A DNA stretch of 24,384 nt, from the NCBI GenBank assembly GCA_964619725.1, contig CAZUFC010000119.1, forward strand, positions 1 through 24,384, in the 5' to 3' direction. This stretch comes from an uncultured bacterium. GTDB lineage: Bacteria; CSSED10-310; CAZUFC01. Each line of letters starts with the position of its first letter. Position 1 is the first letter of the stretch. Position numbers and translations under genes: made by a program. The notes below the pieces were generated by a model, which was not told the DNA's origin, did no database searches, and saw nothing but the letters and a program-made list of their open reading frames with translations. Shown in pieces: positions 167 to 24,031 of this stretch.

Positions 167-297
167 TTTTTTCTCCCTTGATTATTTTGGCAATTGCAAA
201 GCTGAACGGCATTTTAGCGCTTTTTTGAAGGCTTTGCATCAGAATTTTTATTTTTTTAAGGTGTGGTTATTGGACTGTTAAGCTTTTCATTTCTTTC

Positions 298-374
298 TCA
301 CCATGAAGCGCATGAAGAGCATGAAGTTGTCTGTGAACATCGACTCAAATCGGGTTATCATAGGTTCGTCATCA
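298..374 (+). repeat. Direct repeat copy 1 with 9-bp-period (CATGAAGNN)x3 core
   Basis: TCACCATGAAGCGCATGAAGAGCATGAAGTT (298-328) is identical to 744-774. TATCATAGGTTCGTCATCA (356-374) matches TATCACAGGTTCGACATCA (802-820) at the same 446-bp offset. Confidence 0.9.
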
Positions 375-385
375 AAAATAATGAC

Positions 386-540
386 GGGATTGATCAAACC
401 GGAATTACACTTCTTGCAAAACTTTTGACAGTTTGTTTCAGTAATCTGGGTCGAGGCCGGTATCGGGATCGGGAACGAAATCGAAAGGACGGGATATTCG
501 GAAGAATCGTAACCTTAAAGGACGCATTTTTTATCAAGCC
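386..540 (+). mobile_element. MITE-like element family A, degenerate copy (155 bp)
   Basis: Starts GGGATTGATCAAACCGGAATTACACTTCTTGCAAAACTTTTGACAGTTTGT, closely matching the reverse complement of 23297-23347. Has internal ATCGGN-like hexamers and ends ACGCATTTTTTATCAAGCC, a decayed TGATCAATGCC terminal inverted repeat. Confidence 0.7.
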
Positions 541-632
541 ATAGTGACGATACCATGATACGATGTCGAAAAAGAATATATCAATTTTCAACCGAAATGT
601 TCATTCCGTCAGATAATTCGACGACTCATCTT

Positions 633-967: not shown

Positions 968-1080
968 ATTCTTCTTATACATACTGCGTTATTCAACTGA
1001 ATACGCATAGTTTCCTTATCCGGTCGATTTTTAGCTTCTCGCCCGGGATTTGACCGGCATCGTTGCTTAAACCTTGGCGA

Positions 1081-1111
1081 TGCGAAGGCAGGCTTCCAGC
1101 CTGCTTTTGCA
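1081..1111. repeat. GC-rich hairpin (REP-like or terminator-like) ~100 bp beyond the giant gene's stop
   Basis: TGCGAAGGCAGGCT-TCC-AGCCTGCTTTTGCA: 7-bp perfect core GCAGGCT/AGCCTGC, extending to 14 bp with G-U pairs on the + strand. A T-run follows only in the + direction, so a role as terminator for the minus-strand gene is uncertain. Confidence 0.5.
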
Positions 1112-1212
1112 GAACAAAGCTTTTAGTCTGACATAACCTTTCAAAGCCCCGGTAACCGTACCGGTTTCATACCTCTCCTTGTCCTTTTCGTTCTTTTTGT
1201 CCTTTTCATCTT

Positions 1213-1317
1213 TTATTTCGTTTTCATCGTTTGCTTTTTTCCAGGTTTAATAATGGTCAATATCGACAGTAATATAATCATCACGGCTATGCCTGTCATA
1301 TTGGTCGCGGGCACGGG
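1213..1317 (-). other. C-terminal tripartite sorting-signal-like segment (PVPAT motif + TM helix + basic tail; IPTL-CTERM/PEP-CTERM-like)
   Basis: [34 protein letters not shown] follows a ~105-aa Thr/Pro stalk. The motif-TM-basic layout is typical of exosortase/archaeosortase targets. Confidence 0.65.
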
Positions 1318-4300
1318 GGCGACGGTCGGTGTTATTGTGGGCGTGGAGGTGTATTCCGGGGTTTCTGTGGGTGAATTCGTGGGGGTGTTCGTTGGCGTTG
1401 TCGTTGGCGTATTTGTCGGGGTTTCGGTCGGGGTGTTCGTCGATTCCGGCGTGTTTGTGGGAACGGCAGTTTCCGTTTGTGTGGGCGTTATGGTGGGGGA
1501 ATTTGTGGGACTTGTTGTTGGCGTTAAAGTTTCCGTGGGTGATGATGTCGGTGTGGGACTTTTTGTTGCCGTGGGCGAAAGAGTAGGCGTCGGCGTTAAT
1601 GTGGGGGTAAGCGTCGCTGTCGGTATTTGTGTGGGGGTCGCCATGGGGGAATCCAGCCAATCCAGGTAATTTACGTCGTCGGTTACCCTGTCTCCCGGAT
1701 CATTGTCGTTGCCGTCGTTCACGCATCCGTCATAGCCGAAATAATTGTCGTCCGGACCTCCGGCATCGCCCCACCAGTTGAAAGTCGCATCTATGCAGGT
1801 CGTATCGTCCGTATTGCGCACTCCATACGTGGTATTGCCTTCTATGTTGTTTCCTTTTGTCGTCGTTCCTCCTATTACGGGTTCCGCTCCTGATTCAGCG
1901 AATACTCCGAAACGCTGGCCGGTCAGTATGCAATTTGTTATTTCCGGTTGCGTTCCCACTCCGCTTGCTCTTACGCCGGAATATGAATTATTGCCGATGC
2001 GGCAGGAATGAATCACGGGCTGAGCGCCTTCGTTGCAATAAATGCCTTCGCCTTTGCCGTATACTATTTCGCAATATTCGAAAGTGGGAGATGATGCGTA
2101 ACAGCTTATCATGTTCCCGGTTTCGTATCCGCCGTATTCGAATTTGACGTTTCTTATGATACAGCTCTCATCTACAGCGTAGTCACAGAATTTCAGTCCA
2201 GCCCATTCTCCCTCTTCGGACGGAGGTTGATAATAATCGTTGTGGGTGAATACGACGGGATTCTCCGGAAGCGCTTCTATCATCAGTCCGCCCGGTCTCT
2301 GGGAATCGTTTGAACCTATGGTCAGACTGTAATAATGGTTGAATTGCAGTTCGACTCCGGGTTCTATGGTCAATACGGCTGGATTGCCTGATTCGCCTGT
2401 TACCGTGACGTTTCCGTTTATCAGATAGGGTATGCCCTGGTTTCGCCAGAGGGCGTCAGCGATGAGAGTATCTGCGAAAACCAGTATTTTCTGGCCTCCA
2501 TTATTGATGTAAGAATTACCATGCATGGAATCGATGTTTCGTGCATAACAGCCGATGGGGTAGCTGCTGTTGAAGTTGAACTCGTTATTCGTTATTACCG
2601 GCAGGGCTGTGGATGAGTTAACTCTGATGCCGTAGCTGGATTGTTCGGAGATCGTGGAACCGTTAATCGTCGGACTGGAATCGCCCGTTATGTAGATGCC
2701 GTAGCTGGAGTTAGCCGTTATAAGGCTGTTCTGGACATCGGGAGATGCATCAATGCAATATATGCCGTAGGAGAGATTGTCGCGGACAGTGCACAGGTTC
2801 AATGAGGGTTGAGCGCCTTCACGGCAGACAATGCCGTAATCGGCGCCGAATCTTGATTCCACTTGGTTGAACGTTGGGGAACAGCCGTTACAGATGATAT
2901 TTTCGTAATCGGGATATCCTCCGTATTTTACAGTCGTATAATTCAGTTCAGTCAGCGCATCATCCGCATACAGCCCGAAATACAATCCGTTCCAGTATCC
3001 TGGTTCCTGGGGTTCTGAATCGCCGGCGAATACTACTCTTTCTTCGGACGTTCCCTGCGTGATCAACGCACCCGGCCTGGAATCGGACGCGTCATGCCCG
3101 ATGAAGAGTCCCCTGTTTTCTGCGAACAGCATGATGGTTCCGGATTCAACGGTTAACGCAGCGGTTTGATAATCCGTTCCGTAGACGGATACGTTATCGA
3201 CTATTTTGTAAGGTATGCCCGGATTATCCCAGCCGGCGTCTTGCGTTAGCGTGCCGCCTCGGAGGTAAATCTGCGGGTACAGGTTATCCTGGTAAGCATT
3301 GTCGTAAATGTTATCGATCTGGACGGCCCAGGCATACATCGGATAATCGTCATTATCGTCGAAAAGACTGCCGGTTATTACGGGCCTGGAAGCCGAATCA
3401 TGAATATATGTTCCATACTCCCCGTTCTCAAAGAAGACGCAATTATTCACTATGGGCGAACAGGAACCGTTCATATAGAGCCCCTCATCGGAGTTTAACG
3501 CGAGCGAGCAACCGGTTATGACGGGGGAGCAATCGTTCTGCAGTTTTATTCCGTTGTCGGTGTTGGATATGAAGTCGCAGCCTGTCAACAGCGGACTGGC
3601 TCCGTCCGTGCAATAGAGTCCCGATCCTGCACATTCCGTCGATTTCGTATCGTAAAAGGCGGGTGAACTCCCGTTGCAGTATAGGTTGTGCCTGGAGGAA
3701 TACCCGCCGTACTGAATGATGCAATGATTCAATTCACTCAAAGCGTCATCGGAATATGCGGCGAAATAGATGCCGTCCCAGAATCCGTGAACAGGCGCCT
3801 CAGTATCAGCGGTAAAAACGATTTTTGCGTCTTCGGTTCCAATTGCGGCCAAAGCGCCGGGCTGACCGGGATCAGTATCATGTCCGATGTAAATTTCCAG
3901 TTCCGGCCCCATCTCTATCACCGTTCCCTGTTCCAGCGTCAGAGTCGTCACGCCGTCTTCCCCATCCGTCCCCTGTATCGTCAGGTCGTTTTCCGTTATC
4001 TTATAGGGTATGCCGTTATTCACCCACAGGGCATCCCGGGTCAGCGTTTCACTCACTACGTATATCTGCTGGTTCAGGTTATCCGCATAACTGTTGTTCA
4101 TGAATCCGGGGATATGCCTGGCGAAGAGCCTGACAGGATAGTAATCGTTATCGTCGAAACAACATCCCGTCACGACCGGTGAAGAGTTCGCATCAGCGAC
4201 GTATATTCCCCAGTTGCAGTTCTCGAATATAATGCAGTTCGTTACGGAAGGCGATGAACCGCCGGTCATGTATATGGCGCAGCTTTCGTTATAACCGATG

Positions 4301-7300
4301 AAGCATTGACTCACGTCCGGATCGCTTCCGTAGTAGAGGCTGATGCCCTTGTTTCCGTTTTCGATGAATTCACAGTCGTATACTACAGGATCGGCGTTAT
4401 TGCAGAACAAACCGGCCCTTGAGGAATACCGGGAAACCGTATGGGTGATTGTGGGGGAGCAACTTTCGAGTTTAATGTTGTCATTGGAGGAATCTCCGCC
4501 GTATTCGACTATGCAGGCATCAAGTATCGAATCGTCGGAAGCGTAATCGTGGAATGTGATCCCGTCCCAGTATCCGGGCGAGGATTCCCAACCGGAGAAC
4601 ACTATTTCATTTCCGCCCGGGATTCCCTGAGCGTCAAGGGCTCCGGGATTAGCCGGATCGGATGAATGTCCGACTGTCAATCGTGCGGAAGAATTGAACA
4701 GCAGAACATTTCCAGGTTCAATCGTCAGGCATGTAATGCCGTCTGTGCCGTCCCGGCCCATAACGGTCAGGTCTGAATCGACGTACAGGGGCAATTCCTG
4801 GAAAGGCCAGGTGCAATCCTGCGATATCGTGCCGCCGCTGACCATGATAGCTTGTTTCGCATCGGGCAAACCTGCGTAGGTATTTCCGGTGATGTTCTGC
4901 AATTGATGAACATTGTAAATTTCTATGGGCCAGTCATTGATGTTTTTGAAGGCGTTGTTCTGAATGACCGGACCGGCGCCGGCAGCGGCATAGATGCCCT
5001 GACCGTTGTATTCGACAGAAAGGTTCGAAGCGACTGGAGAAGAATTACCGTCGCAATACAGGGCGTATTCGCTGCAATCGCTGATTGTTCCGCCATCGAA
5101 CAGGGGATCGGCGTCGTCCAGGTATATGCCGTGATGGTTGCTCTTGCTGACTGTGCAATTAGTTATGTTCGGCGAGCATGATTCGCATCGTATGCATGAA
5201 TTGATGGAATAACCGCCGTATTCCACCGTGCAGTAATCCAGGATGCTTTCATCATCAGCGGAATCTCTGAAACAAATACCGCCGATTCTGCCGGGATAGG
5301 GTTCGGAGGAAGCGCTGGTGAAAGTAATTCCCATTGATTCCGAACCGTCGGCGATCAGTTTTCCCGTGTCGCCGGAGGTTGCACCGCCTACGTAGATTCT
5401 GATGTAAGGATTATATTTTACCGTAACGCCGTCTTCGATCGTCAGGACAGCGTTATTACGAATCGTAACGTTGCCGGTCAGCAGCATGACGCCGCCGCAC
5501 GGCATATCAGCAGGCCAGGTCGTATCTTCCGTGATGTCGCCTGAAAAACTCCAGGGCGTGCATGACATCTCCGGAGATGCTGTCGGCGGAGGAGTCAATA
5601 CCGGAGTTTCCGTAGGCGCCTGCGTATAAACCGGGGTTGACGTTGCCGTATGCGTCGGCGAAGAAGTGGGCATTACCGTCTCCGTCGGCGTGGAAGTCGC
5701 GGTCAATACCGGCGTTTCAGTAGGCAGCGGCGATTCCGTCGGTTCAGGCGTTCCCGCGGGCGTGAACGTGGCCGTGTACGTTGCAGTAGGAACCGGCGTA
5801 GGCGTGTTCATTGGAGCGGTCAGCCAGTTTTCGTAATATACGTCTTCACTGACGTCATCGCCGGCATCATTATCATTCATTCCGTTCATACACCAGTCGG
5901 TACCGGCATAATCGTCATCGGGACCTCCGGCATCGCCCCACCAGTTGTATTGAGCTTCAATGCACGTATCCGAATATATGTTCCTTATCCCCTGTCCGTA
6001 GTTTTCGAAAATATTGTTTCCGCACCCCGGTACGCCGCCGATAACAGGTTCTGCAGCATCTTCAACATAGACTCCGTAACGCTGGCCGCACATTACGCTG
6101 TTGGTGACCACGGGATTTGTATTTCCGCCGACGGCATGTATTCCTTTGGAAACGTTGTCATGGATAATACAGGAATGAATAACAGGAGACGCGCCTGATG
6201 TGCAGTAAATGCCGGCATCATCCCCTTCAGTGAATTCACAATGCTCAAAAACAGGGGAACTCCCTTCACAGCATATCATTTCGGCATCTTCATATCCCCC
6301 GAATTCAAATACGGCATGCTTGATCAGGCAATGATCGTCATGCGCATATTTCCGGAAAATTATCCCTGTCCATCGTTGAGAATCCTGCGGCGGATCATAC
6401 CATTCATTGAAAGTAAACGTCACCTTCTCTTCAGGCGTTCCTTCAACCGAGAATCCGCCCCGATTCAATATGCTGTTTGTGCCGATATACAATCCTCGCT
6501 GCGGATTAAACTGAATTTCATTTCCCGCTTCAATCGTCAGGATCGCGATTTCGCCGGAATTTCCCCTGACCGTTATATCGCCCAGAACAAGATAACAGAG
6601 TCCTTCGTTTTTCCAGGTCGCATCCTCGACTATCCACCCAGAATCCACAAGTATTCGATCATAAGAATTATTGATGTAAATATTATCATGAACATTATCG
6701 ACATGCCCGGCCCTGCAGCGGACAGGATTATTATTGAGTGCGAAAGTGTTGTTTACTGCAGAGACTACGGTTTCTTCAGAATCCGCTCTCAATCCATAAT
6801 CCGAATTTTCCGATATTACGTTGCCGGATACGTTTGATAATGATTCGCCGTGGATATATATCCCTTCCCGGTCCGCCTTGATTTGACTGTCGAGTATATT
6901 TACGGATGAATCCGAACAATGTATGCCGTATTCATTATTATGATGAATATAGCAATTTGAGATGGAAATCTGCGAGTCTTCTTCGCAATAAACTCCGGAA
7001 TAAAGCCCGAAACGGGATTCGACGGAATTCAATAAGGGCTGGGCTGATCTGCAACGTATGTTGTCAAAACCGCCATTACCGCCGTATTCCACGATACAAT
7101 GTCTCAGTTCGGAAATTGAGCCTCCGGAAAAAGGCGTAAAATATATCCCGTTCCAGAAACCGGGTTCCTGCTCCTGCGCATCAGCGGTAAACAGAATCTC
7201 GTTATCCGGTTCTCCCAGCGCTTTTAATATTCCAGCATAGTCAGGATTCGTTTCATGTCCCACAACGAATTGGATTTCACTGCCCATGCGAATCTCAACG

Positions 7301-10300
7301 CCTGGTTCAATGGCCAATGTCGTTATCTGGTCTTCGCCGTCATTACCTCTGATGTAGACGTTTCCAGCGATCCGATAGGGTATGCCGCAGTTTTCCCAGA
7401 CAGAATCATCGACCACTGCACCTCCGACTATGTAGAGATAGGGGGATTCATTATCGGCATAATAATTCCCGTAGAAGTCACCGTAGTGTCTAGCCCAGGC
7501 ATAAACAGGATATCCGTCGTTGTCGTCGAAGAGGCAATCCAGCGCTGTTACCCCGCAATCCTGTGAATAGAGATGAACGCCGTCGTTTCCGTTTTCTCTG
7601 ACGGTTACGCCGGCAATCTCGACGGAAGCGCCGTTTTGCAGGTATATCCCGTAACTGGAGTTTTCCCATATTGATCCCCCGGTCATCAGAGGAGTAGAAT
7701 TAACATCAGCATAAATGCCATAGTGAGTGTTATGGTTTAAATTGCAATCAATCAGGGTTGGGGAAGCATTTTCCGTGCATTTTATTCCGGGGCCCCATCC
7801 ATATCTTGATTCCGTATGGAAGAGGTAAGGGGAACTGTCATAACAGTGTATATTTTCAATGTCCGAGTAGCCGCCGTATTCAATGATGCAATGCCGCAGT
7901 TCAGACTGGGAGTCGTCGGAATGAGCGGCGAAATATATGCCGCGCCAATCGCCGCATGCGGGGCATTCCTGGTCTGAGGTGAAAATTACGGGTTCATTCT
8001 CCTGACCCAGGGCGCGGAGGGCTCCGGCGTTATCCGGATTTTCATCTTCGCCGACATAAATGCTCCAAAGATCGCTGAAGTTCAACCGCACTCCGGCTTC
8101 AAGCGTCAGCACGGTGACTTCGTCATCGCCGTCCTGGCCTGATATGAAGATATCGCCGTTAATTTTATAGGGTATGCCCGGATTCTCCCACACAGCATCA
8201 TGGGCAATCGTATCACCGGCGACGAGAATCTTCTGACAGCCATTGTTTTGATAGAGGTTGCCGGAGAAGGCGCCGAAATGGCTGGCGTATCCGGCAACGG
8301 GATATGCGTCGTTATCGTCGAACATGCAACCAATAACAACAGGATTCGATCCGGCGCTCCCTGCAGTCATTCCGTAATCGCCGTTTTCATATATCAGGCA
8401 ATTGCTGATGAAAGCGGAAGAGCCGCCGGCGTTGCTTATGCCGTCATCCTGATTGTAAGCCGTCGTGCATGCGATAATGGTCGGCGAACTGGAATAATGG
8501 ATATAAATTCCGTCGACGCCGTTTGAGGAGAAATCGCAGTTTTCGATCATCGGAGAAGCGTTATTGATGCACGAAAGACCATGTTCCGATGCGTGACGGG
8601 ATTGAATGCCGGATAACTGCAGCGAACAACCGTCTATCGTAATATTCGTCGTCGCATAAGATACGTCGCATGAGGCAAGGATAGAATCGTCCGCGGCAGT
8701 GGAGTTGAATTTGATGCCTGTCCAACAGCCCGGCAATTCATTCCAGCCGGTAAAAACGACAGGTGCGCCAGGAACATTTCCCTGAGCGACGAGTCTGCCG
8801 GGCTGATTGACGTCGGTATCATGCCCCACAGCCAGCCCAGCTTCTTCAGCGAAAATAAGAGTCGTTCCGGGCTCAATACTCAACGAAGTAATTCTGTCCG
8901 GTCCATCGGTTCCTCTGACGAAAACGTCGCCCGTGAAGTAATAACCGATTCCCTGGTTTGCCCAGGAGCTGTCCTCCACGACAAATCCTCCGGCGACATG
9001 AATCGCTGCGCAATCTTCTGATAGTTCCATAAAAGTATTGTTTTCAATGTTATTAATACCTTTGACGTCATCAACGGAAACGGGCCAGCTCCCGGTTCTG
9101 ATGAACGCATTATCCGCAACGACCGGTCTGCATCCTGCAGCGATGCTTACGCCGCTCATGGTATCTTCAAATACATTGCCTGATATTAAAGGTTGAGAGT
9201 CTTCTGCTGCCAGTATGCCCCATTCGATGCAGCCGTTGAAAACCGAATTTTCGATCAGGGGACAAGCTTCGCCGTAACACGCTATACCGTGGTGACTGCT
9301 GAAACGGCATGTGCAGTCGCTTATCGAAGGCGATGCAGAATCGCAACGGATGTCGGCATTCGTTGCATTTCCAGCGTATTCTATGATGCAATATTGCAGT
9401 GAGCTGTCATCATAAGCCGAATCCCTGAAATGAAGTCCGTCGTATCTTCCGGGTGAAGGATCAAGGCGGTCGGATGTGAATAAGACAGGCTCTGATTCCG
9501 TTCCTGCAGCGATCAGGCGGCCTCTGTCGCTTCCCGTGGAGCCGCCGATAAATATCCTGGCCGAATTTTCGAATCTTACCTGTACGCCGGGTTCAATGGT
9601 CAGAGTCGCATCATTTCGCACGGCTATTTCCCCTGAAATCAAATATATGCCGTTCCAGGGATTATCGACATCCCAGACGGTATCAGCGACGATATCTTCA
9701 GAGATGCCCTGTGGAGTGGAGTACGGCGTAGGCGTAGGCGTGGCGCTGCTGGTTGCTGAGGGTCTCGGCGTTGCCGTAAAGGTCGAGGTCGCCGTTAACG
9801 TCGGCGAATGAGTCGATGTCGGCGTATAAGGAGCCGCCGTTGAGGTATATGCCGGGGTAAGCGTGAACTCAGGCGTTTCGGTCGGGACTGCCGTTTCCGT
9901 GGGCAGTGGCGTTTCCGTGGGGGAGGATGAGGGGATCGGCGTAGGTGTATTGATTGGAGCGGTCAACCAATCTGTATAATTTACATCATCGCTGACCTTG
10001 TCTCCGGCATCGTTGTTGTTGCCTCCGTTTACGCAATCGTCCGATCCGTGCAAATCATCATCCGGCCCCCCGGCATCGCCCCACCAGTTGAATCGTGCTT
10101 CAATGCAGGTCTCAGAATATAAATTCCTGACGCCGTAACTTGTATTCCCGAAAATATTATTCCCGGCGTCAACGGCGCCTCCGATAACCGGCTCGGCCCC
10201 GTTTTCAATATATATGCCGTACCGGTTTTCCGTTATGATGCTGTTTGAAATTAACGGGTCTGTATCGCCTCCCGTCATCCGCAAGCCGCTGTTGGAATTA

Positions 10301-13300
10301 TCGCGTATATTGCAGGAAAAGAGGACAGGAGATGCTCCGTTCGTGCAGTATATGCCGGCTCCTTCACCCTTTCTGAATTCACAATGTTCAAAAACCGGCG
10401 AACTCGCTTTGCAAAAGATCATGTGATCGTCGTCATAACCTCCGTACTCAAAAACCGCATGCCTGATAATGCAATGATCATCATCTGCATGATCGCCGAA
10501 GTACACGCCTTTCCATTCGCCTGATTCCTGGGGAGGAACATACCCCTCATTATATGTAAAAATGACAGGATTCTCCGGAGTTCCCTCCGCCTTCAGACCG
10601 CCCGGACTTATTACGCCTTCATTTCCAATGAATAATTGATAATAACGGTTAAACTGGAGTTCCACTCCGGCTTCCAGCGTCAACACGGCCAGGTTTCCGG
10701 AAAGTCCGCCCACCGTAACATCTCCGTTAATCAAATAAGGAATGCCGTCATTTATCCAGAGGGCATCGGATGAAACATTGCCGGAATCGACGAGTAATCT
10801 CTGCTGTTGATTGTTTATGTAATTGTTGTCGTGAATCATGTCAGCGTGGTCAGCGCGGCAGCGGACGGGATAACTGCTGTTCAAAGTAAATGTATTGCCG
10901 ATTATGGAGGGACGCGCTTCATTAGAGGGTATACGGATGCCCTGAGTCGGATGTGCTGATATTAAGTTTTGGGTTATTTCCGGTGAAGAATCGCCATCGA
11001 TAAAGATTCCATTATCAGCGTTGCTGCTTATTTCACAACCGGTTATCTGCGGTGAAGCGTCCTCGCATCGAACGCCGTATTTTGCATTATGATGTAAAAA
11101 ACATTCCTGGATAACCGGCATGGAACCTCCTGTGCAGTATACGCCGGAATTGCTGTTGTAACGCGATTCCACATTATCCAGTAGAGGCGATACGCCGTTG
11201 CAATGAATGCATTCCTCAAGATTGTATCCACCGTATTCAACCAGGCAGTGTTGCATTATAGAATTTTCCGGGTCGGAAAAAGGAGCGAAATAAATTCCTG
11301 ACCAGTATCCTGGGGAGGGCGCATCCGTATCCGCAGTAAAAATAACCGGATTTGAAGATTCGCCCATTGCCGTCAAAGCGCCGGCATAGTCCTGGTTTTC
11401 ATCATGTCCGATGTAGAATTTAATTTCGCTCCCCATAAGCAAAACAGCGCCGGCTTCAATGTTGAGAGATGTAATCTCATCATTCCCGTCGTTTCCACGC
11501 ACGTAGACATCGCCGGCTATGCGATAAGGGATGCCGGGATTTTCCCACAAAGCGTCCCGGGCAATGCGACCTCCTGCGATATAGATGCACTGCATGGCGT
11601 TTTCAACGTAGGAGTTTCCATAAAAATCGCCCGGATCGTCCGCATACAGAAATACCGGGTAACCGTCGTTATCGTCGAAGAGGCATGAGGTTATCGTTGC
11701 ATCGCTGCCCTGATCTTCAACATATAAGCCATGATTATTGTTTTCATGGAACGTGACGTTTTCAGCAGCTCCAGAACTCTCATTTCTGATATAGAATCCA
11801 TAGCTTGAATTCTCGCTGATCATGCCGCCGCTCAATACAGGCGACGAGCCGTTGTCTACGAACACTCCGTAATTGTTGTTGTGATGAAAGAAGCAGTCGA
11901 TCAATTCAGGCGCTGCGAAATGATCGCAGTATATGCCGGGACCTGAGCACCGGCATGATTCCGTATTTGAAATCAAAGGCGAGCTGTTGTAACAAGTTAT
12001 ATTTTCTATATCTTTTCCGCCGTATTCAACAACGCAATAATTCAGCTCGCACAAAGCATCTTCGGACAAATCATCGAAATAGATGCCGCCCCAATCGCCC
12101 TGGCTCTGCGGTTGTGATGCCGACGTAAAAAATACCGGTTCGCCGGGTTCGCCCAAAGCGCGTAACGCGCCTGGCAGGTCAGGATCGTCGGCATGTCCCA
12201 CGAAAATTGAAAATCCCGGATTGACCTTAACTTCAACGCCCGCTTCAATCGTAAGGGTCGTTACATGATCCGGACCGTCCGTTCCCCGGATAAAAATATC
12301 TCCCGTCAGTTTATAGGGGACGCCTGTATCTTCCCACACGCCGTCGATCGAAACGGTATCGCCCAGAACGTAAAATTCGTCGTATAAATTACCTGAAGCG
12401 GCATTATCGCTGAAAGCGCCTAACTGGCCGGCGAAAGCATACACTGGATAATTATTATTGTCGTGGAAGCCGCAGTTAGTAATTTGCGGACGGCAATCTG
12501 CCGTCGTGACCGCCAGGCCGTTCCCGAAATTTGAATTAAAGGAGCAATTTTCGATGACAGGCGAAGAAGCATGTTCGATGCGCAGTCCGTTTGAATCGTT
12601 CGACGTCATTTCACAGTTGATGATTGACGGCGAACTTGAGTGAAGTATTCGTAGGCCTTGCGCGGAGTTGTGCATCAACTGACAGTTCAGCAGCACAGCC
12701 TGGGAACCGCTATCGATATAAACGCCCGGTCCGTCTCCGTATCTTGAAATGGTATTGCTGATATAAGGGGAGCAGCCGTCAATCAGGATATTTTCATTAA
12801 TATCATACCCGCCGTATTCCACAACACAATAGTTCATGATCGATTCACCGGCTGCGTACCTGTTGAATGCGATGCCGTCCCACTCCGGACCGCTTTGAGA
12901 CCAGAGCGAGAATGTTATGATGCCGCTTCCTGAAAAACCGTCGGCAATAAGTTTACCCGGTTTGTCCGCATGCTCTTCATGACCGACGGTTATACCCGTT
13001 TGCTCGTTGAACAGAACAACCGCTCCCGGTTCCAGTTCAAGCGTCGTTACGCCGTCCTCCCCATCAGTTCCCTGCACGATGACGTCGTTTTCAGCGATAT
13101 AATAGGGTATGCCCTGATTCAACCAGGTCCCGTCTTTCGATATTACTCCGCCCTTGACGCGTACTGCGGCGTAATTATGCGGGAGGTTTGAGTAGCTGTT
13201 CCCGGCAATGTAAGGAACGGCGTGAATATTATCGACGGAAACCGGCCATTGTCCGTTGCCTGTAAAATTGTTGTTCATTACCGCGGGTAAGGCCGCAGCG

Positions 13301-16300
13301 CTGACCACTAATCCGTTCTGATCATTGTACTCAATAAGGCAGTTCGATATAAGCGAGGCTGACTCATACCCGACGTTTATTCCGGCGCTGCGACAACCTG
13401 ATACGGTGCATTCGGTTATGACGGGATGCGCTTTATTACAACAGTAAATTCCGTCAGCGCTGCTGAATTGAACACTGCAATGCTCGATAGTCGGCGAGGA
13501 TGAATCAAGCCTGATAATCGCATTGATCGAGGACCCTCCGTATTCCAGTGTGCAGTATGTCATGAAGCTGTCATCGCAGGCGGAATTTCTGAAATATATG
13601 CCTGCCCATTGACCGGGCGATTTGCTTGTTTTGGATGATGTAAAAAGTATGCCGTGGCTGGGATCGCCCTCAGCAAGCAGTTCACCGTTTTCTCCGTTAT
13701 CGCCGCCGATATATAGCCGGCGACTGGATTCGAAACGAACCTCAACGCCGTCTTCGATAGTCAGCACGGCATCGTTACGGACGGAGACGTTTTCCGCAAT
13801 CAGATAGATACCCTGATGCGGGTTATCTGTGGTCCAGGTCGTATCGACTATAATGTCTTCGGAGATGTTCATCGGGATAGCGGATGATGCCGGCGTGGGC
13901 ATAGGGGATTCCGTGGCCGTAGGAGGAATCGTAGGCGTATCGGTCGGTGTGGATGTCGCCGTGGGCGTGCGTGTCGGGAGGGATGTGGGAGTGTCGGGGG
14001 GAAGAGTCGGTTCAGGCGTTTGAGTAACGGTAGGGGATTGAGTCGCTGTCGGTGTATCTGTCGGCGAGCATGTGACTGTAGGCGTGTCCGTCGGTTCGGG
14101 TGTCGGTTGACCGGGTGCAGCGGTCAGCCAGTTCAAATAATTTACGTCTTCGCTGACATTATCCGCTGCATCATTATTGTTGCCGTCGTCCACGCACCCG
14201 TCGCTTCCGAATCCGTCGTCGTCCGGCCCTTCTGCATCTCCCCACCAGTTGCCGTTCGCCTGTATGCATGTGGAGGTATCGAGATTCCTCACTGCGTAGG
14301 ATGAGTTACCGGAAAATTCGTTGCCCGTTCCGCTGCCGCCGCCTATAACAGGATTCGATCCGCCGGTAATGTAAACGCCGTTGGGTTGACCGTTGAAAAT
14401 GCTGGAGCTTATTGTCGGATCGCTGCCGATACCGGTCGTATATATGCCGTATTCCGTGTTGTCGTGAAAGCTGCAGGAAAAAATTTCAGGCGATGATCCG
14501 TCTTCGCAATATATTCCGGCGCCGTGACTGTTTTTTATTTCGCAGTATTCAAACGTCGGCGATGAGAGGTCGCAATTGACGGCATGATCGCTGCCGTATC
14601 CCGCATATTCTATCACCGCGTGTCGGATGCTGCATATATTATCCTGAGCGTAATTGTGGAAGTATATACCGTACCATTCACCGGATGACGACGGAGTATA
14701 TCCGTCATTATAAGTAAACATTACGGGATTCTCCGGGGTTCCGTTCACAGAGATGCCGCCCGGATTTATTATGCTGCCGGAACCGATGTTCAACCGGTAG
14801 TATCTGTGCCATTGCATTTCCACTCCAGGTTCAATAACCAGGACGGCAGGATTTCCGTCTGTGCCTTTAACATCAACGTCGCCGACCATCAGGTAGGGCA
14901 CGTTCTGCTTATGCCATACGGCATCGGAAGATATGGTGTCTCCGTTCACGTATATCTTTTGAACAGCGTTGCCGCTGCATGCGTTTCCGGTTTGCCTGTC
15001 GAGATCGCCGGCATAGCAGCGTAAGGGATAGCTTCCGTTATCGTTCAAGGTATTGTTGGAAACAAGGGGATCGGCTGCTGCATGATTAACGTAAATGCCG
15101 TAGCTTGAATTTTCTGAAATTGAGTTGCCTGTTATTGCCGGAGAGGAAGCCTGCAGCGCATGAATCCCGTAAGCGGTATTGTGCGATATAAGGCAGTTAT
15201 TGATAACCGGCGAACCGTCGTCGCATGTGATACCGTTGTCCGTATTGTCGTGAATATTGCATCCGAAGAGTTCCGCTTCCGCGCTGTTGATGAAATATAA
15301 GCCTCCAGAACCCTGACGGCATTCCACGTTGTTCAGGGAGGGGCTGCTTCCATCGCAGCAGATGCTGTAACTGGAAGAATATCCGGCGTATTCGACGATG
15401 CAGTGGCTGATTTCCGATTCAGTCCCGTCTGCGAATGGACGAAAATACAGTCCGTCCCATGTTCCGGGCGAAGGAGTATCCGAATCGGCAGTAAAAATGA
15501 CTTTTTCTGCGGCATTACCTTCAACGCGGAGAGCTCCGGGATAATCGGGATTCGTCGCATGACCGACGTACAAGCCGTGATAGGAACCGAAACGCAACTC
15601 AGCTCCCGCCTCGATGGTCAGAACAGTCAGATCGTCCTCACCGTCCTGTCCGACCACGCTGAGGTCTCCCGTAATTCTGTAGGGTATTCCGGCGTTTTCC
15701 CATACTGAATCGTATATGACAGCGTCGCCCCACACATAAATAAACTGATTGACGTTGTTCACGTAGGTATTGTTTTGAAAACCCCCGATATGTCGGGCTT
15801 TCGCCATGACTGGGTATCCGTTGTTTCCGTCGAACAGGCAGCCTGTGAACAGAGGCAGACAATCCGTCCGGTCGAGGTATATGCCGTCGTTGTTGTTGGA
15901 TGAGATTGCGCAATCGGCAAAAACGGGCGAGCAACCGTCGAAAAGCTGAACTCCATAGGAACTGTTGTTGGAAATCGTGGTCCCTGTGATTACGGGAGAA
16001 CTTTGTAGTTCAGCATGAATGCCGTAATTCGAGTTGTGATGAAAATGACAATCAGATATAGCGGGAGATGAGCCATTACAGCAATAAACACCAGGACCTG
16101 AAGCGTACCGGGACTCGGTATTGGAAATGACCGGGGAACTGCCGGAGCAATAGATATTCTCACCGGGATCATATCCGCCGTATTCAACGATGCAATGGTT
16201 CATTTCGCACAATACATCAGAAGAGTAATCAGCGAAGTATATCCCTTTCCAGCCGCCCGGCGCCGGCGTATCGCCGTCCGCGGTAAAGAGTATTTTTTCG

Positions 16301-19300
16301 GACTCAGAGCCCAAAGCCTGCAAAGCTCCCGGAAGTCTGTGATTCTGGTCGTCGCCGATATACAGGCAATAATAAGCGCCGAACATCAACTCACATCCCG
16401 GATTCAGGGCCACCGTCGTTACGTCGTCCTCGCCGTCGTGTCCCTGCACCCAGACGTTTCCTGTCATTTTGTAGGGAATACCCGGATTTTCCCAGGAAGC
16501 ATCACGCGGGACGACGTCTTCCCGCACATATATCTGCTGACAGGCATTCTCGGTATAGGTATTGCCTGCGAATGCGCCGATTTGTCCGGCGAAACAGTTG
16601 ACGGGATAACTGCCGTTGCCGTCGAAGAGGCAATCCGTAACGGTGGGCAGGCAATGGGCATGAGCGATCCGCAGTCCGTAACCGCCATTTCCGTTCAAGC
16701 GGCAATTATTGATTTCCGGAGAGGCGCCGCCGGATATGTATATCCCGTAGTCTTCGTTTGAATTCATGTCGCAGTCGTGAATGAAAGGGGAGCTGAAATT
16801 ACAGGCATATATTCCGTGCCCGTCGTTTTGATAAATATCGGTTCCGTAAATGAATACGGAAGAATCGTCGCAGTCGATGCCGTTTCCTGCGGCGTAGCGA
16901 ACAGTGCATTGTCCGATGGTCATGCATGAATGGTGGAGATTAATGTTTTCGCCGCTTTTTTCCCTGGTTCCATAACCCCCGTGCTCGATTATGCAGAAAC
17001 GCAGCAAAGAATCATCGCTTGAATAATATTCAAATGTGATCCCATCCCAGTAAACGCTATCGGACCATCGAGTAAACCATATTTTCGTAGTGGAAGAACC
17101 GCCGTCAGCGATCAGCTTACCGGGTTTATTGGAAGTTTCGGCATGACCGACGGTCAATCCGGCCTGGGAGTCAAAATAAATAATGACGCCCGGAGCGACG
17201 GTCAATGTCGTTATTTCGTCAGGTCCATCCATACCTTCGACAGCTATGTCCTCGGGCAGGTAATAAGGAGCGGTCTGATCTCTCCAGAGACTGTCCCGGC
17301 TCACCGTTCCGCCTCCGACATATATAGCGTCATGGTCCGGTTCCAGGTCGGAGAAGACGTTGTCCCTTATTCTGTCGACCGTATCGGGATTCTCGACCCG
17401 GATGGGCCAATCGGTCGGCGTTTCAAAGGAATTGTCGATTATGACCGGTCTGCTGCCGCCGTCTGCGTAAACGCCGCCGGAGCAGTCGCGTATGATCGAA
17501 GCGGAAATATGCGGCGATGAATTTCCGAAGGCATAAACGCCGTATCCGCTGCAATTGCGAATAAGGCAATCCGATATGACTGCGTAGGAGGTCGCCCGGC
17601 AGCGTATGCCGTTGCCGGCGCAATAACGGATATTGCACTGATTTATGCTGGGAGAGGAAGTCTCGCAATAAACGCCCGCCGATGTGCCATATCCGGCATA
17701 TTCAATGATGCAGTTGCTGAGGGTACTGGAATCATCCGCCGCATCCCTGAAATATATGCCCCTGTATTGACCGGGAGCGGGATTGGGATTATCGCTCGTT
17801 ATCCAAATTTTGATCTCTTCATCGCCCACAGCCGCCAGTTTTCCACAATCTCCCGCCGTTTCTCCGCCGACATATAAACAGCAACCGCTTTCAAACCTTA
17901 ATTCGACGCCTTCCTGAATGGTGAGAACCGCGTTGTTTCTGATCGAAATGCTTGCCGTTATGTGGTATACTCCGTCGCATGTCGGCGATGTTTCACTCCA
18001 TGTCGTGTCCTCGATTATGTCTTCGGAAACGTAATAGGGGGCGCATGTATTGGTGGGAGTAACGCTTGGCGGAAGAGTCGCCGTATTCGTCGGCGTCGCT
18101 GTCGGCTGAAGGGTCGGAGTGAATGTCGGGGAAGCCGTCATGGTTGCGGTTGGAGTTAAGGTTGGGGTTCCCGACGGCAGGGGCGAAGCTGTGGGAGTCA
18201 AAAACGGAGCGCATTCATTTTGAATTATTCCATGCTCACAATAAATGTGACACATCTCCTCCAGGCGACCCATCTCCATAAATAACCAGCCGTCCCAGAA
18301 ATCCAGTATCGACTCAGGCGCATAAGTCGTGCATACTCTCCATATATTGTCCGGACCGTCTCCGAAAAAATCCCAGCAGAAGTCGCCCTGGTAATTATCA
18401 TCGTTAAAATCAAAAATATCCCATAATATGCAGGCGACCGTACCTTCGACGGACCACGGTATTTCCGGGTCGTTCCATCCTTTGGAGGCATTGCAGAAGG
18501 CATCATTGCAGCCGGGAGTGGGCGTGCCGTTGTTCGAATAAGCCATACAAACGCCTGTCTCCAGGTTATATTCTTCTTTTAAAGGAGCGCATGCGGGCGT
18601 CGCATGCGGTTCATTCGCATTGTCATATACGCTGCTTCCCGTGACTGCGCAGGCTGTAAAATGAGCCCAGGCTTCGTCCCATGCCAAGCCAAGATTTGTG
18701 TCTCCGCAAAAACTGTGCTCAGCCACAGGGGTATATGGAGCCAGGAATCCGTAAACCCAGCTTATATAATGCCCGTATTCATGCATTATTACCCCGTCAT
18801 CCCATTCGTCCAATCCGGGATCGTTTTGTATGACGATCTTGTCGCCGGGGATGTAATAAGAACCGCTTCCGTTACCCGGATACCACTCGGTGACGACCTG
18901 GGGCGGGGCTCCCGTTCCCGGCCTGTCGCACACCCATTCGAAAGCTTCCCAGGTTTTGTCGCAGATGTTCCAGGCTCCTCGATTGCTCTCAGCCGGCATC
19001 CACGTTCCCATGTCGTAAGCGCCGTCCGGAACGTTATCGACGGTATCCGTGACTGTCCGCAAAGTCATTTCGTAATCGTTAACCACCTTTACCGCCGCAT
19101 TTTCAGCATAAAAAGTCACGTAAATGTCCTGGGTCCCCCCTTCTCCGTCGACGTTATCCACAGGTCCGAAACTGAAATAACCCGTTTCATCCGTATAGGT
19201 CGTCGCCAACTGCTCGTCGCCTAATACGTCCTCGTCCCATAAAGCGCAATATGTGTATCGTGACGGAACTCCGCTTAAATAATTGAAATATCCGTAAACC

Positions 19301-19599
19301 GTTATGGTTCCCCGGTCTCCCCTGCCGCCAGTCGCCGGAGGTTCCCCGGCGACCGATGTCTGGCCGTCGACCGGTTCGCCGAACGAGGGCCTTTCCGGTT
19401 GAAAAATCGAACCGGCTGAATTTCGTTGTCCTTGATCAGCCGGTTCTCCAGCCGTTAACCCCTGTTGCACGTAGTTCCGAACAGGCTCGTTTTCCCCGGC
19501 GCTCACAGCTTCTCCAGCGCTTGCTTGAATTAAAACTAAAATAATTGATATAAATATGCTCGCCCCCATCAGGTACGAGATTTTCTTTTTTAGATTCAT
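1213..19599 (-). CDS. Giant (6128 aa) secreted/surface protein: zincin-like metalloprotease plus four right-handed parallel beta-helix modules, Thr/Pro linkers and C-terminal membrane anchor/sorting signal
   Basis: Uninterrupted 18.4-kb ORF. N-terminal MNLKKK, hydrophobic stretch and ASA signal peptide. HEYGH motif. Dozens of ~22-24-aa repeats of type sPxIxnCxIxxNxxxGIyc (PbH1/pectin-lyase-like). Five Thr/Pro-rich linkers. C-terminal hydrophobic helix and Lys-rich tail. Confidence 0.93.
1645..5555 (-). repeat. Beta-helix module 4 (~1300 aa; boundaries approximate)
   Basis: Begins [13 protein letters not shown] and ends [18 protein letters not shown]...[12 protein letters not shown]. Five internal LT(I/L/V)ExG...FT...WxGI sub-repeats. 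Confidence 0.85.
5813..9710 (-). repeat. Beta-helix module 3 (~1300 aa; boundaries approximate)
   Basis: Begins [12 protein letters not shown] and ends [18 protein letters not shown]...[12 protein letters not shown]. Confidence 0.85.
9955..13872 (-). repeat. Beta-helix module 2 (~1300 aa; boundaries approximate)
   Basis: Begins [12 protein letters not shown] and ends [18 protein letters not shown]...[12 protein letters not shown]. Confidence 0.85.
14120..18040 (-). repeat. Beta-helix module 1 (~1300 aa; boundaries approximate)
   Basis: Begins [12 protein letters not shown] and ends [18 protein letters not shown]...[13 protein letters not shown]. Confidence 0.85.
18226..19311 (-). other. Zincin (probable gluzincin) metalloprotease region of the giant protein, aa ~97-458
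   Basis: [16 protein letters not shown] (HEYGH at 18769-18783, aa 273-277) with downstream AWDEAWAHF (Glu309, 18673-18675) as candidate third zinc ligand. Preceded by a small beta-sandwich-like segment (LWDED...[11 protein letters not shown]). Confidence 0.7.
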
Positions 19600-19731
19600 T
19601 CTTTTACGCCTTTCGAATTTGCTTAATATTGTAATTCATTGTTTTAACGTCATTATTGAAATCTTAAAACATCTGGAAAAAGATAAAATAAGTCTTTCCG
19701 GCGTGTATTGACTTCCCCGTAAGATAAGTCC

Positions 19732-19760
19732 ATAAAATCCGGAATATAACCGTATTCCGG
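19732..19760 (-). terminator. Probable intrinsic terminator between the 161-aa gene and the giant gene
   Basis: Minus strand CCGGAATA-CGGTTA-TATTCCGG (perfect 8-bp stem) followed by ATTTTAT, starting 8 nt after the TGA at 19769-19771. Confidence 0.6.
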
Positions 19761-19768
19761 CTGCAAGT

Positions 19769-20254
19769 TCATTTTACTTTTACGGCGTTTGAGGAATAAC
19801 TCGAATAGTTGATTCCGTCTGAAGAGGAGCTATGATCGAAGCTCCCTTCATTCAAATCGCTGATCACGAATATGCGCTCAATCCTTTTTCCCCATTTTTC
19901 AGCAGTATTTATACTTTCCGCTGCAGCGCCGACCGCCTTGATTTTAAACTCTCCCGGTTCCGTTGCTTCCGCTTCAATTATAAAACTCTCGCGCTTCATT
20001 TTTTTCAGGTCGCCGCACCACCGCAATTCTCCGGCCCGGCGCTTCAATCCCTCCGGCAAATGGACCTCAATCATAATGTCCTCAAGATCGAAACCGCTGA
20101 AAAACTCCACCCGCAAGCTGAATTTTTCGCCGACGACCGGTTCGCCCTCGCCCCTCAGTTCGATGACCAGGGGAAAACCGAGCGAAGCCGCCGACTTACA
20201 TGTGAAAAAGAAAATAAAAGGAATGATCCCTAAAACAATTAATTTACTTTTCAT
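19769..20254 (-). CDS. Small exported beta-rich (Ig-like/beta-sandwich) hypothetical protein, 161 aa
   Basis: ATG at 20254 with AGGGGAG RBS within 20261-20270. Signal peptide MKSKLIVLGIIPFIFFFTCKSAA (weak lipobox FFTC possible). Alternating hydrophobic strands VGEKFSLRVEF, IEVHLPEGL, WCGDL, EPGEFKIKA. Confidence 0.8.
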   Translation of the reverse strand: MKSKLIVLGIIPFIFFFTCKSAASLGFPLVIELRGEGEPVVGEKFSLRVEFFSGFDLEDIMIEVHLPEGLKRRAGELRWCGDLKKMKRESFIIEAEATEPGEFKIKAVGAAAESINTAEKWGKRIERIFVISDLNEGSFDHSSSSDGINYSSYSSNAVKVK

Positions 20255-20628
20255 AATTTTTCTCTCCCCTCTTCATAAATGACGAGTCACGGCAACATTT
20301 TTTGAATACCGTTTTTTCGGCCATGACATGGACGAATCCACTGAATCAACCGTCATTACAAATATAAAGATAATTGTTTAAAAATTGTTAAATTCAAAAA
20401 ACTTTGAAATCATCATGCATTAAAAAACTAATTTAAGGCGCCTGATTCAATATTCACGTTTCAGCGGCGCATTATTCCAGATTTTAATCAGGAGAGAGTA
20501 TTTATTCAGGAGGAATTTTGACTTTCGATTTTTTTTGGATTAACAAAAGGATAAGTATTGATCGCAACCGTCTGGAAGGACAAGGCTGCGATTTTTTTAA
20601 TTCAGTTGAAAGAGGAGGAAATGGGTTG
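20255..20628. promoter_or_regulatory. AT-rich divergent intergenic region
   Basis: Visibly AT-rich 374 bp between head-to-head genes, with RBSs at both ends (AGGGGAG minus; AGAGGAGG at 20611-20618 plus). No convincing -35/-10 pair identified. Confidence 0.5.
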
Positions 20629-23791: not shown

Positions 23792-24029
23792 AAGCAACGT
23801 CTTCCTCCAAATCCTGGTCGGTATAATGTCGAGGGATACCCCGCCGGCCAAGCAACAAGCCGAATTCGACACGGTTCAAGGAAGTCAGTTCGCAGGCCTT
23901 GCCGAACGATAGAATACCTCTGCTGTAAAGCGCCACAGCTAATTCTATAAAAAGCTGCCGGCGTTGTTCCGATTCAGGCATGCGCATCGCTTGAACGACC
24001 TCATCTGGAATTTCTAATATCAAACTCAT
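23742..24029 (-). CDS. UPF0175-family protein (putative antitoxin), ~95 aa
   Basis: Real start is likely ATG 24029 (MSLILEIPDEV). Family-like motif ELAVALYSRGILSFGKACELTSLNRVEFGLLLGRRGIP...YTDQDLEED. Overlaps the start of the PIN gene by 50 bp. The ORF-track extension to 24131 is repeat DNA. Confidence 0.85.
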   Translation of the reverse strand: MSLILEIPDEVVQAMRMPESEQRRQLFIELAVALYSRGILSFGKACELTSLNRVEFGLLLGRRGIPRHYTDQDLEEDVAYVSSKQHFSDMESRKS

Positions 24030-24031
24030 TT

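Follow-up and report, generated by a model that had tools for sequence, protein, structure and literature searches.

A giant beta-helix protein with a predicted thermolysin-fold metallopeptidase head in an uncultured bacterium

A contig of 24,384 nucleotides (nt) from an uncultured bacterium (CAZUFC010000119.1 of assembly GCA_964619725.1; C119 in the numbering used below) was taken whole for analysis and is termed the window throughout. On its minus strand, at 1213-19599, lies a gene for a protein of 6128 residues. An earlier note, made from the letters of the DNA, had proposed a membrane-tethered protease carried on a pole of four giant beta-helix rods. The best reading, held with modest confidence, is still that of a protease borne at the far end of a long stalk of beta-helices. 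More fully, the product is on balance probably a giant surface or matrix protein, exported by the Sec pathway and sorted by an exosortase, with a zinc metallopeptidase of an uncharacterised thermolysin-fold family at the end away from its anchor. Each part is of a known kind; it is the combination that is new, and no known principle is overturned. The earlier picture needs correction in three respects: the C-terminus belongs to a sorting system and is not a plain transmembrane (TM) helix, the pole is a reusable scaffold, and the head has an N-terminal domain partner that is encoded separately.

The predicted protease head and its separately encoded N-terminal domain

The only HExxH motif of the whole protein is HEYGH, at residues 273-277. 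The region around it (the head, residues 96-465) matched no family at E<=0.01 in local Pfam or NCBIfam, and at E<=10 Pfam offered just a sub-threshold match to TTR-52 and one to DUF7155. A phmmer search of 1.84 billion cluster representatives with the head returned 873 matches at E<=1e-3, 251 at E<=1e-10 and 14 at E<=1e-30. The 149 listed of these 873 that were examined range from 238 to 2492 residues, and 143 of the 149 keep an HExxH motif, mostly HEYGH, in the matched segment. In an alignment of 42 sequences of the family H273, H277 and E309 do not vary at all, E274 and H295 are each conserved in at least 90%, and E309 lies within the motif AW(S/D)E(G/A)WA.

An AlphaFold2 model of the head built from this alignment scored well (predicted local distance difference test, pLDDT, 89.2; predicted template modelling score, pTM, 0.90). 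Both histidines are placed on helix 173-187 of the model and E309 on the next helix, 208-225. When the model was compared with the PDB by Foldseek, the matches were the M4 peptidases ProA, aureolysin, vibriolysin, thermolysin and LasB, with E values from 2e-7 to 1e-3; over its first ~110 residues the head scores as a transthyretin-like sandwich as well. The model has the two-lobe fold of thermolysin. Because the fold comparisons agree and the HEXXH histidines and the downstream glutamate are invariant, the head is, as modelled, a thermolysin-fold gluzincin of clan MA(E). The three residues named beforehand as the metal site are exactly those found to be invariant, and the structural check that had been proposed for the head, AlphaFold followed by Foldseek, gave a thermolysin fold with M4 peptidases as its PDB matches. 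A fold and a catalytic triad can in this way be assigned to a widespread, unannotated family of 873 clusters in bacteria and archaea.

Ten clusters of the family carry the source names 'hypothetical protein' or 'PEGA domain-containing protein'. A search with an alignment of ten sequences found 58 loci across many phyla of both bacteria and archaea, among them Methanoperedens, Thermoplasmatales, Bathyarchaeota, Pirellulales, Nitrospirota, Latescibacterota, Acidobacteriota, Myxococcota and Mycoplasmatota. Among 26 relatives scanned with Pfam many carry immunoglobulin-like (Ig-like), CARDB or FlgD_ig domains, type IX secretion system (T9SS) tails or dockerin, and it is because of these companions that the family is taken to be extracellular. 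Beta_helix or NosD domains accompany the head in 2 of the 26. In its own genome the head occurs once.

Amongst characterised peptidases the closest comparison is with families M4 (thermolysin, LasB, aureolysin, ProA) and M36 (fungalysin) of clan MA(E), yet identity to these is only 8-13% and the Pfam models Peptidase_M4, M4_C and M36 do not match the head even at E<=10. The head differs from them in the spacing between its second histidine and the glutamate, which is 32 residues, in the glutamate motif given above, and in its N-terminal lobe, with its transthyretin-like score. The FTP/PepSY propeptide of M4 enzymes is absent here (no Pfam match in residues 1-500 or in the small ORF described below); in its place is an Ig-like N-domain of ~100 residues, encoded in this organism by a separate gene. 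Membership of M4 was rejected on the unmatched Peptidase_M4 models, and PF02868 likewise has no match anywhere in the genome.

A lead to a different family comes from the ESM Atlas. There PF27283 (Mycolysin_M) is carried by 14% of the members of one cluster neighbouring the head, and the cluster nearest to the small ORF bears the automatic name 'Mycolysin N-terminal domain-containing protein' (score 0.93). Two separate parts of the locus, the head and the small ORF, both lead to mycolysin by this route. Mycolysin is family M5 of MEROPS, placed in subclan MA(E) by Table 2 of PMC3890501. In the part of that source concerned with distribution M5 was known in 2014 from 2 bacterial phyla (PMC3890501), whereas the head family is found in many bacterial and archaeal phyla. 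The head is possibly mycolysin-like, a lead that derives from embedding neighbours and not from an alignment or a model score.

The small open reading frame (ORF) in question encodes 161 residues (19769-20254, minus strand) and adjoins the giant gene on its upstream side, across a gap of 169 nt and in a different frame. It has no match in Pfam, no paralogue in its own genome and no sequence match in the PDB at E<=10. It does match the N-terminus of a head protein of ~1050 residues from a genome of the same phylum (G003), with 29% identity over 122 residues and an E value of 2e-14. A hidden Markov model (HMM) iterated from the ORF detected this N-domain in 59 of the 149 listed head relatives, upstream of the head in all 59 and separated from it by a median of 68 residues; applied to the ORF's own genome, the same HMM matched the 161-residue ORF and nothing else.

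At loci in other genomes the N-domain and the head form one ORF in 10 cases, and in 8 the N-domain is a separate gene directly upstream. In five of these eight split loci both ORFs have signal-like N-termini of their own, the second start lying between -7 and +16 nt from the first stop. On a contig of Candidatus Methanoperedens nitroreducens (L004, 5401-5445) the N-domain and head genes are in the same frame with a lone TAG between them, next to which stands AGGAGG, with an ATG 16 nt on. Read-through of this TAG as pyrrolysine, joining the two ORFs, was considered and rejected, since a TAG followed by AGGAGG and ATG denotes two genes; as read from its sequence, this pair is a tightly coupled two-gene operon.

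By homology, then, the 161-residue ORF is the N-terminal domain of the head family encoded in trans, in a two-gene form that recurs. Its membership of the family (29% identity; 59 of 149 relatives by HMM) had been overlooked by the earlier note. The low-complexity stretch at residues 29-95 of the giant protein stands where the one-gene homologues have their inter-domain linker. The propeptides of thermolysin-like proteases both help folding and inhibit activity, a subject of Tang et al. 2003 (among the references of PMC517725). The 161-residue protein may similarly bind the head as a prodomain-like chaperone or inhibitor, and the occurrence of a one-gene form beside a conserved two-gene form provides a direct hypothesis for a partner or prodomain.

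The beta-helix pole

The locus divides into the following parts, given by position in the window and listed from the small ORF to the C-terminus of the giant protein.

19769..20254, minus strand: N-domain ORF of 161 residues with its own signal-peptide-like N-terminus (by sequence homology)
19600..19768, minus strand: intergenic spacer of 169 nt, with a putative hairpin CCGGAATA...TATTCCGG after the small ORF (by eye)
19516..19599, minus strand: putative signal peptide, residues 1-28, MNLKKK..., cleavage after ASA (read from the translation)
19315..19515, minus strand: low-complexity linker, residues 29-95, with three GEP-containing stretches (from the translation)
18985..19314, minus strand: predicted transthyretin-like beta-sandwich, residues 96 to ~205
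18205..18984, minus strand: predicted zincin catalytic part, residues ~206-465
18769-18783, minus strand: HEYGH, residues 273-277
18673-18675, minus strand: E309
18031..18204, minus strand: Thr/Pro linker 1, residues 466-523 (by composition)
14128..18030, minus strand: module 1, residues 524-1824, five beta-helix units, ending in NWWGD (Pfam and unit HMM)
13852..14127, minus strand: Thr/Pro linker 2, residues 1825-1916 (by composition)
9964..13851, minus strand: module 2, residues 1917-3212, five units (Pfam and unit HMM)
9685..9963, minus strand: Thr/Pro linker 3, residues 3213-3305 (by composition)
5809..9684, minus strand: module 3, residues 3306-4597, five units (Pfam and unit HMM)
5539..5808, minus strand: Thr/Pro linker 4, residues 4598-4687 (by composition)
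1666..5538, minus strand: module 4, residues 4688-5978, five units (Pfam and unit HMM)
1318..1665, minus strand: Thr/Pro stalk, residues 5979-6094 (by composition)
1216..1317, minus strand: predicted tripartite C-terminal sorting signal, residues 6095-6128 (from a genome-wide consensus)

In translation the N-terminus reads as MNLKKK, a hydrophobic run and ASA before a G, and resembles a Sec signal peptide, in keeping with the signal peptide described earlier. A composition scan placed more than 60% Thr, Pro and Ser in residues 463-523, 1825-1916, 3213-3305, 4598-4687 and 5979-6106, five stretches which locate the Thr/Pro linkers and stalk that had been described.

Between these stretches lie the four modules. 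Pairwise BLASTP gives 43-48% identity in all six comparisons, colinear over ~1290-1300 residues. All four modules match Pfam Beta_helix (PF13229; 218-254 bits against a cut-off of 25.9) and NosD (PF05048; 115-153 bits), each with 5-6 stretches of Beta_helix plus NosD, and the two modules that were scanned with para_beta_helix (TIGR03804) scored 68.5 and 72.9 bits (cut-off 19.45). The motif [IVF][EK][YFH][GA]G recurs every ~263 residues and NWWGD closes each module. An HMM of the repeating unit, built from the protein itself, resolves the pole into 20 units; the five of each module abut directly, without spacers. In each of the four modules the autocorrelation has peaks at lags of 262-264 and 23 residues (z of 6.4-8.6 at lag 23), and a unit of ~263 residues is equivalent to ~11.4 coils of 23 residues. 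The modules are thus, from their sequence, right-handed parallel beta-helix repeats with a coil period of 23 residues. Conserved positions across 19 aligned units are mostly G, hydrophobic, W, P, N and C, and no conserved charged cluster resembling an active site was seen among them. The unit profile has weak matches of the PbH1 type to mannuronan C5-epimerases and to a phage receptor-binding fibre.

The claim of right-handed beta-helix modules is therefore borne out in all four by the Pfam matches and the 23-residue period. The 'four giant rods' exist as modules of ~1300 residues, but each is really a run of five abutting units of ~263 residues. A beta-helix rises by ~4.8 Å per coil; a module would then be ~26 nm long and the 20 units ~110 nm if all coils were coaxial, an arithmetically plausible length that the five Thr/Pro linkers, of 58-128 residues, would extend further. 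The rod of ~100 nm that had been suggested agrees with this sum (11.4 coils x 20 units x 4.8 Å), whilst its being a single rigid rod is only an inference. The protein contains 197 cysteines (3.2%), many at recurring positions of the 23-residue coil ('nI.c..sSP', 'iyC', 'C....N'), an arrangement that suggests disulfides or cysteine ladders along the helix.

Long beta-helix proteins call to mind the adhesins of type V secretion (autotransporter or two-partner). Pfam found in the whole protein Beta_helix, NosD and a sub-threshold DUF1565, and neither a C-terminal beta-barrel nor an N-terminal two-partner secretion (TPS) domain; this candidate was rejected for want of either domain in the scan.

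The pole is not peculiar to this gene. Another protein of the same genome, of 8482 residues on contig C39, has a signal peptide, six modules, Thr/Pro linkers and a similar tail, and is headless. A two-module protein is encoded on C25, and four further ORFs of the genome have one long array each. In a genome of the same phylum and a different family (G005; locus L078, C26:13500-33400) a protein of 5762 residues repeats the layout of 4 x 5 units with Thr/Pro linkers; it has no HExxH and ends in dockerin-like repeats instead of a sorting tail. A cohesin domain is present in a 12092-residue protein on C34 of the genome under study, which hints, at the level of sequence, that surface giants may assemble by cohesin-dockerin pairing. 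Beyond these genomes, 71 proteins of 712-2268 residues and 17 of 2269-5000 residues share the module at 20-41% identity; where they are named it is as 'right-handed parallel beta-helix repeat-containing protein', and all are uncharacterised. In precomputed annotations PF28492 occurs with headless module proteins, which assigns it to the modules rather than to the head. The first description had missed both that this scaffold is shared and that headless versions of it exist, on C39 and in G005.

What sets the window's protein apart from other multi-unit proteins of the PF13229/PF05048 kind is its head, for the module is shared with them and the 4 x 5 layout is found in G005 too. A search of 5.8 billion clusters, at the sensitivity of a word index, for the head in proteins of 3370-10724 residues scored 424 candidates, and the only one with a head was the query itself. 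Neither this search nor the Pfam and NCBIfam scans matched the whole architecture to a characterised family, in agreement with the earlier note.

A quick maximum-likelihood tree (IQ-TREE) of 16 modules indicates how such poles have changed. Module 1 of the window pairs with the first module of the C39 protein and module 4 with its last, each with a Shimodaira-Hasegawa-like approximate likelihood ratio (SH-aLRT) support of 96; modules 2 and 3 of the window are sisters (SH-aLRT 100) nested among the internal modules of C39. From these pairings it follows that both genes derive from one multi-module ancestor. Pole length would have changed afterwards through internal duplication, and the head was presumably gained by one gene or lost from the other. 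The pair offers a natural example of length change in giant repeat proteins, with end modules orthologous between paralogues and internal ones duplicated independently, and it shows how an enzyme can be grafted onto a repeat scaffold.

The putative sorting tail and a candidate exosortase

The protein ends with P-V-P-A-T-N-M-T-G, a hydrophobic stretch of 14 residues and a basic tail. A pattern of [IVLM]P[ATVSIL], a hydrophobic run and basic residues within the last 45 residues was found in 202 of the 8185 ORFs of at least 150 residues in the genome, whereas the controls gave 3 (internal windows), 1 (reversed tails) and 2 (shuffled tails). As a consensus the 202 tails have P-[IV]-P-A-x-[SGN]-x-x-G, ~13 hydrophobic residues and K/R, which the tail of the window fits. 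Half of the 202 (101) have the tail after a T/P-rich stretch, 82 are of at least 1000 residues and 29 of at least 2000; together they amount to 245,439 residues, or ~8% of coding capacity. When eight typical tails were compared with NCBIfam, seven came near the midcut-by-XrtH sorting region and three near IPTL-CTERM. The head homologue of G003 ends in a similar tail, VPAMSAGG.

A single ORF of the exosortase family, of 190 residues, is present in the genome (C134:12958-13527), with 35.5 bits to PF09721 (cut-off 25.7) and 65.7 bits to exo_archaeo, TIGR04178 (cut-off 23). It has homologues in all 14 genomes of the phylum, at 38-58% identity. No sortase (PF04203) was matched in the genome, which is 90.9% complete, and the possibility of sortase/LPXTG cargo was rejected for this reason.

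These features resemble known exosortase and archaeosortase systems. PEP-CTERM, IPTL-CTERM, VPXXXP-CTERM and PGF-CTERM cargo also has a tripartite signal after a Thr-rich stalk, and in those systems as here many cargo proteins are accompanied by a single sorting enzyme. That the TM helix is temporary is to be expected from the relevant parts of PMC6098224 and bioRxiv 10.1101/2023.06.07.544157. Section 15 of the former, a review of 2018, describes the C-terminal TM domains of exosortase/archaeosortase substrates as 'only temporarily anchored', and the review's account of the Haloferax S-layer glycoprotein has it 'long thought' to be TM-anchored until processing by ArtA was shown (PMC6098224). 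The present system differs from those in its motif, P-[IV]-P-A-x-[SGN]-x-x-G, which is nearest to IPTL-CTERM and the XrtH 'midcut' region and mostly sub-cut-off, in an enzyme that falls between ArtB and XrtH, and in the number of its predicted cargo, 202 as compared with 'as many as 52' quoted for ArtA genomes in a passage of the review (PMC6098224). A literature search on IPTL-CTERM, XrtH and VPXXXP-CTERM found no paper on it. So large a cargo set with so well defined a motif is useful, since the biochemistry of exosortases has barely been studied.

BamA is encoded in the genome (535.7 bits), from which the organism is taken to be a diderm, and a protein of ~100 nm held permanently in the inner membrane of such a cell would be shut in the periplasm. 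Given this, the conserved motif in 202 tails and an exosortase gene found across the phylum, a temporary anchor is the preferred reading, and cleavage of the tail with re-anchoring or release appears more likely than a permanent TM anchor.

Rival readings, assembly and genomic surroundings

Is the gene real? It begins with ATG and has no internal stop over its 6128 codons; the frame from stop to stop is 6140 codons long, the upstream in-frame stop lying only 12 codons before the ATG. Its G+C content is 50.7%, against 47.1% for the genome. A chimera of assembly or a pseudogene might be feared in a short-read metagenome bin (9.17 Mb, 344 contigs, contamination 6.5%), the more so as 22 nt (18781-18802) within the head, overlapping the HEYGH codons, are spanned by no listed piece of the unitig assembly of the probable source run. 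On either side of that gap, though, the same assembly yields an independent contig of 18,037 nt, which covers 1000-18780 with 0 differences, is colinear across all four modules and has the junction of head, linker and module well within it, and a second independent unitig covering 18803-19900. Four runs, all from one microbial-mat study, were compared with the gene. Pieces at least 95% alike from a different sample of that study cover 30 of 30 bins of it, and comparison of public contigs with the window lists no joints, indels or variant letters. An apparent joint, 15772->11654, was rejected: it consists of an 18-nt and a 26-nt match with the contig ends loose on both sides, as expected of a paralogue sharing short words. 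Because the DNA of the modules can be aligned with one another only in patches of 63-88% identity, the modules are old duplications and misassembly driven by repeats is unlikely. The identical 4 x 5 layout in G005 and an open frame of 18 kb point the same way, and an artefact is scarcely credible. Misassembly is unlikely, and the observation of one intact ORF of 6128 codons, as first described, is confirmed.

Granted a real gene, the head might be a pseudo-protease, catalytically dead and serving for binding, and the entire protein a pure adhesin. Peptidase models of Pfam and NCBIfam are all unmatched and the M4-type propeptide is absent, as this would have it; set against that are a complete thermolysin fold and HEYGH and E309 intact here and invariant across the family, and a dead head is very improbable. 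Rather improbable as well, if a little less so, is the literal model of the earlier note, in which the C-terminal helix remains a lasting anchor within the cytoplasmic membrane. A hydrophobic stretch with a basic tail does resemble a stop-transfer anchor, and a minor TM-anchored fraction of the Haloferax S-layer glycoprotein is discussed in a part of PMC6098224. With BamA present, however, the protein would be confined to the periplasm; a plain anchor has no need of the P-[IV]-P-A-x-x-x-x-G that precedes the helix in 202 ORFs; and the exosortase-family gene is conserved across the phylum. Of the earlier description of this end the PVPAT-TM-basic tail itself holds good, whereas 'membrane-tethered' gives way to a sorting signal common to 202 ORFs in a diderm with one exosortase gene.

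A stronger rival, unlikely but to be taken seriously, makes the protein a matrix scaffold or adhesin first and a protease second: released into or embedded in the exopolysaccharide of the mat, its arrays would bind polysaccharide or cells, the head would trim itself or the matrix locally, and reach would be irrelevant. The existence of headless poles, with six modules and the same tail on C39 (8482 residues) and a dockerin-like end in G005 (5762 residues), implies a function for the pole in its own right. The DNA comes from a microbial mat, the PbH1 repeats weakly match mannuronan C5-epimerases and a phage receptor-binding fibre, and other giants of the genome are adhesin-like in their domains: eight further tail-bearing proteins, scanned as 13 pieces, gave FG-GAP, CARDB, CarboxypepD_reg, LamG, cohesin and beta-helix domains. 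Against this, the head retains all its catalytic residues and is opposite to the sorting signal, as befits display, and no carbohydrate-active site is apparent at the conserved positions of the units.

The preferred reading, a sorted surface protein with an anchor-distal protease, has a number of points to contend with. No Pfam peptidase model matches the head even at E<=10, and the geometry of the zinc site is taken from conservation and the placement of helices in the model, not from ligand distances. The coaxial stacking and rigidity of the units are presumed. The window's tail is below every curated sorting-domain cut-off, its sole match being midcut_by_XrtH at E 0.024, and among the eight typical tails one passes the curated cut-off for IPTL_CTERM (22.5 against 20.5 bits) and one that for PEP_CTERM. 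The exosortase itself falls under the cut-offs of its subfamilies (76.6 against 86 for XrtH, 78.2 against 150 for ArtB), and its gene is 100 or more contigs away from the giant gene, so that co-occurrence alone links the two. Exosortases are described as being without experimental analysis in the portion of the 2018 review that deals with them (PMC6098224), and exosortase cargo would also have to cross the outer membrane. The four runs of the mat study include no RNA run. Finally, the eight other tail-bearing giants contain no clear enzyme domain in the 13 pieces scanned, which makes an enzyme on such a scaffold an exception in this genome; 'enzymes on poles' as a genome-wide theme was rejected on the same evidence.

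If an anchor-distal protease is nonetheless what the gene encodes, its parts could act together as follows. The beta-helix units would form elongated segments hinged at the Thr/Pro linkers, and these segments would act as a spacer and perhaps as a polysaccharide-binding scaffold. The exosortase would remove the C-terminal helix and transfer the protein either to an anchor at the surface or into the matrix. The separately secreted 161-residue protein would bind the head as a prodomain-like chaperone or inhibitor, and the protease would act far from the cell, on proteins of neighbouring cells, of particles or of the mat matrix. A wider proposal, tentative and rather doubtful, goes further. On this view the cells of the phylum are clad in a very extensive set of exosortase-sorted proteins, and one scaffold among these, a pole of tunable length with conserved terminal modules and internal modules duplicated at will, has here captured a thermolysin-fold protease with a prodomain-like N-domain in trans. 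The outcome would be a two-component, long-reach surface protease to which nothing characterised corresponds, and it would found a new MA(E) peptidase family whose partner subunit is separable.

The lineage is barely sampled: among ~200,000 species the nearest genomes, 13 in number, are related at the level of phylum only. Its genome is rich in giant ORFs, with products of 12092, 8482, 6404, 6399, 6140 and 5416 residues and more, on contigs such as C34, C39, C8, C2, C9, C132, C31, C94 and C60. The giant proteins of Omnitrophota are also very large and mostly extracellular, with attachment and degradative domains, and some have N-terminal peptidase domains (peptidase families C39 and S8), according to parts of bioRxiv 10.1101/2023.11.21.568195. 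In the same parts, however, they are credited with many TM regions, with SecA-like domains and antiparallel beta-helices, and with lengths of >30,000 residues (bioRxiv 10.1101/2023.11.21.568195), whereas in the present protein there are a single C-terminal helix, PbH1 helices of the parallel kind and a zincin. A giant protein of the Omnitrophota type was rejected because its build is quite different.

Elsewhere in the window, 20518-23118 (plus strand) encodes 866 residues, which include an extended GPQGxTG repeat of the collagen type (Pfam Collagen, 157 bits) and, at the C-terminus, a Peptidase_S74 intramolecular-chaperone domain of the kind found in phage tail fibres; BLASTP with its C-terminal part matched at least 30 other ORFs of the genome. 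Overlapping genes at 23144-23872 and 23742-24131 (both minus strand), of the DUF3368 (PIN-like) and UPF0175 families, are probably a toxin-antitoxin module. The DUF3368 ORF continues into a simple repeat of the (GI)n/(DT)n type, and an ORF at 263-544 (plus strand) has a similar '...ITLLAKLLTVC...' end followed by a simple repeat; it may be a second truncated copy, or a repeat element, near the start of the contig. On another contig of the bin a second, very divergent rpoB-like frame (C78:14707-17577, minus strand; an ORF of 1903 residues with partial matches of 30-249 bits) stands beside the normal bacterial rpoB on C180 (1740 bits), and may be contamination or an odd paralogue.

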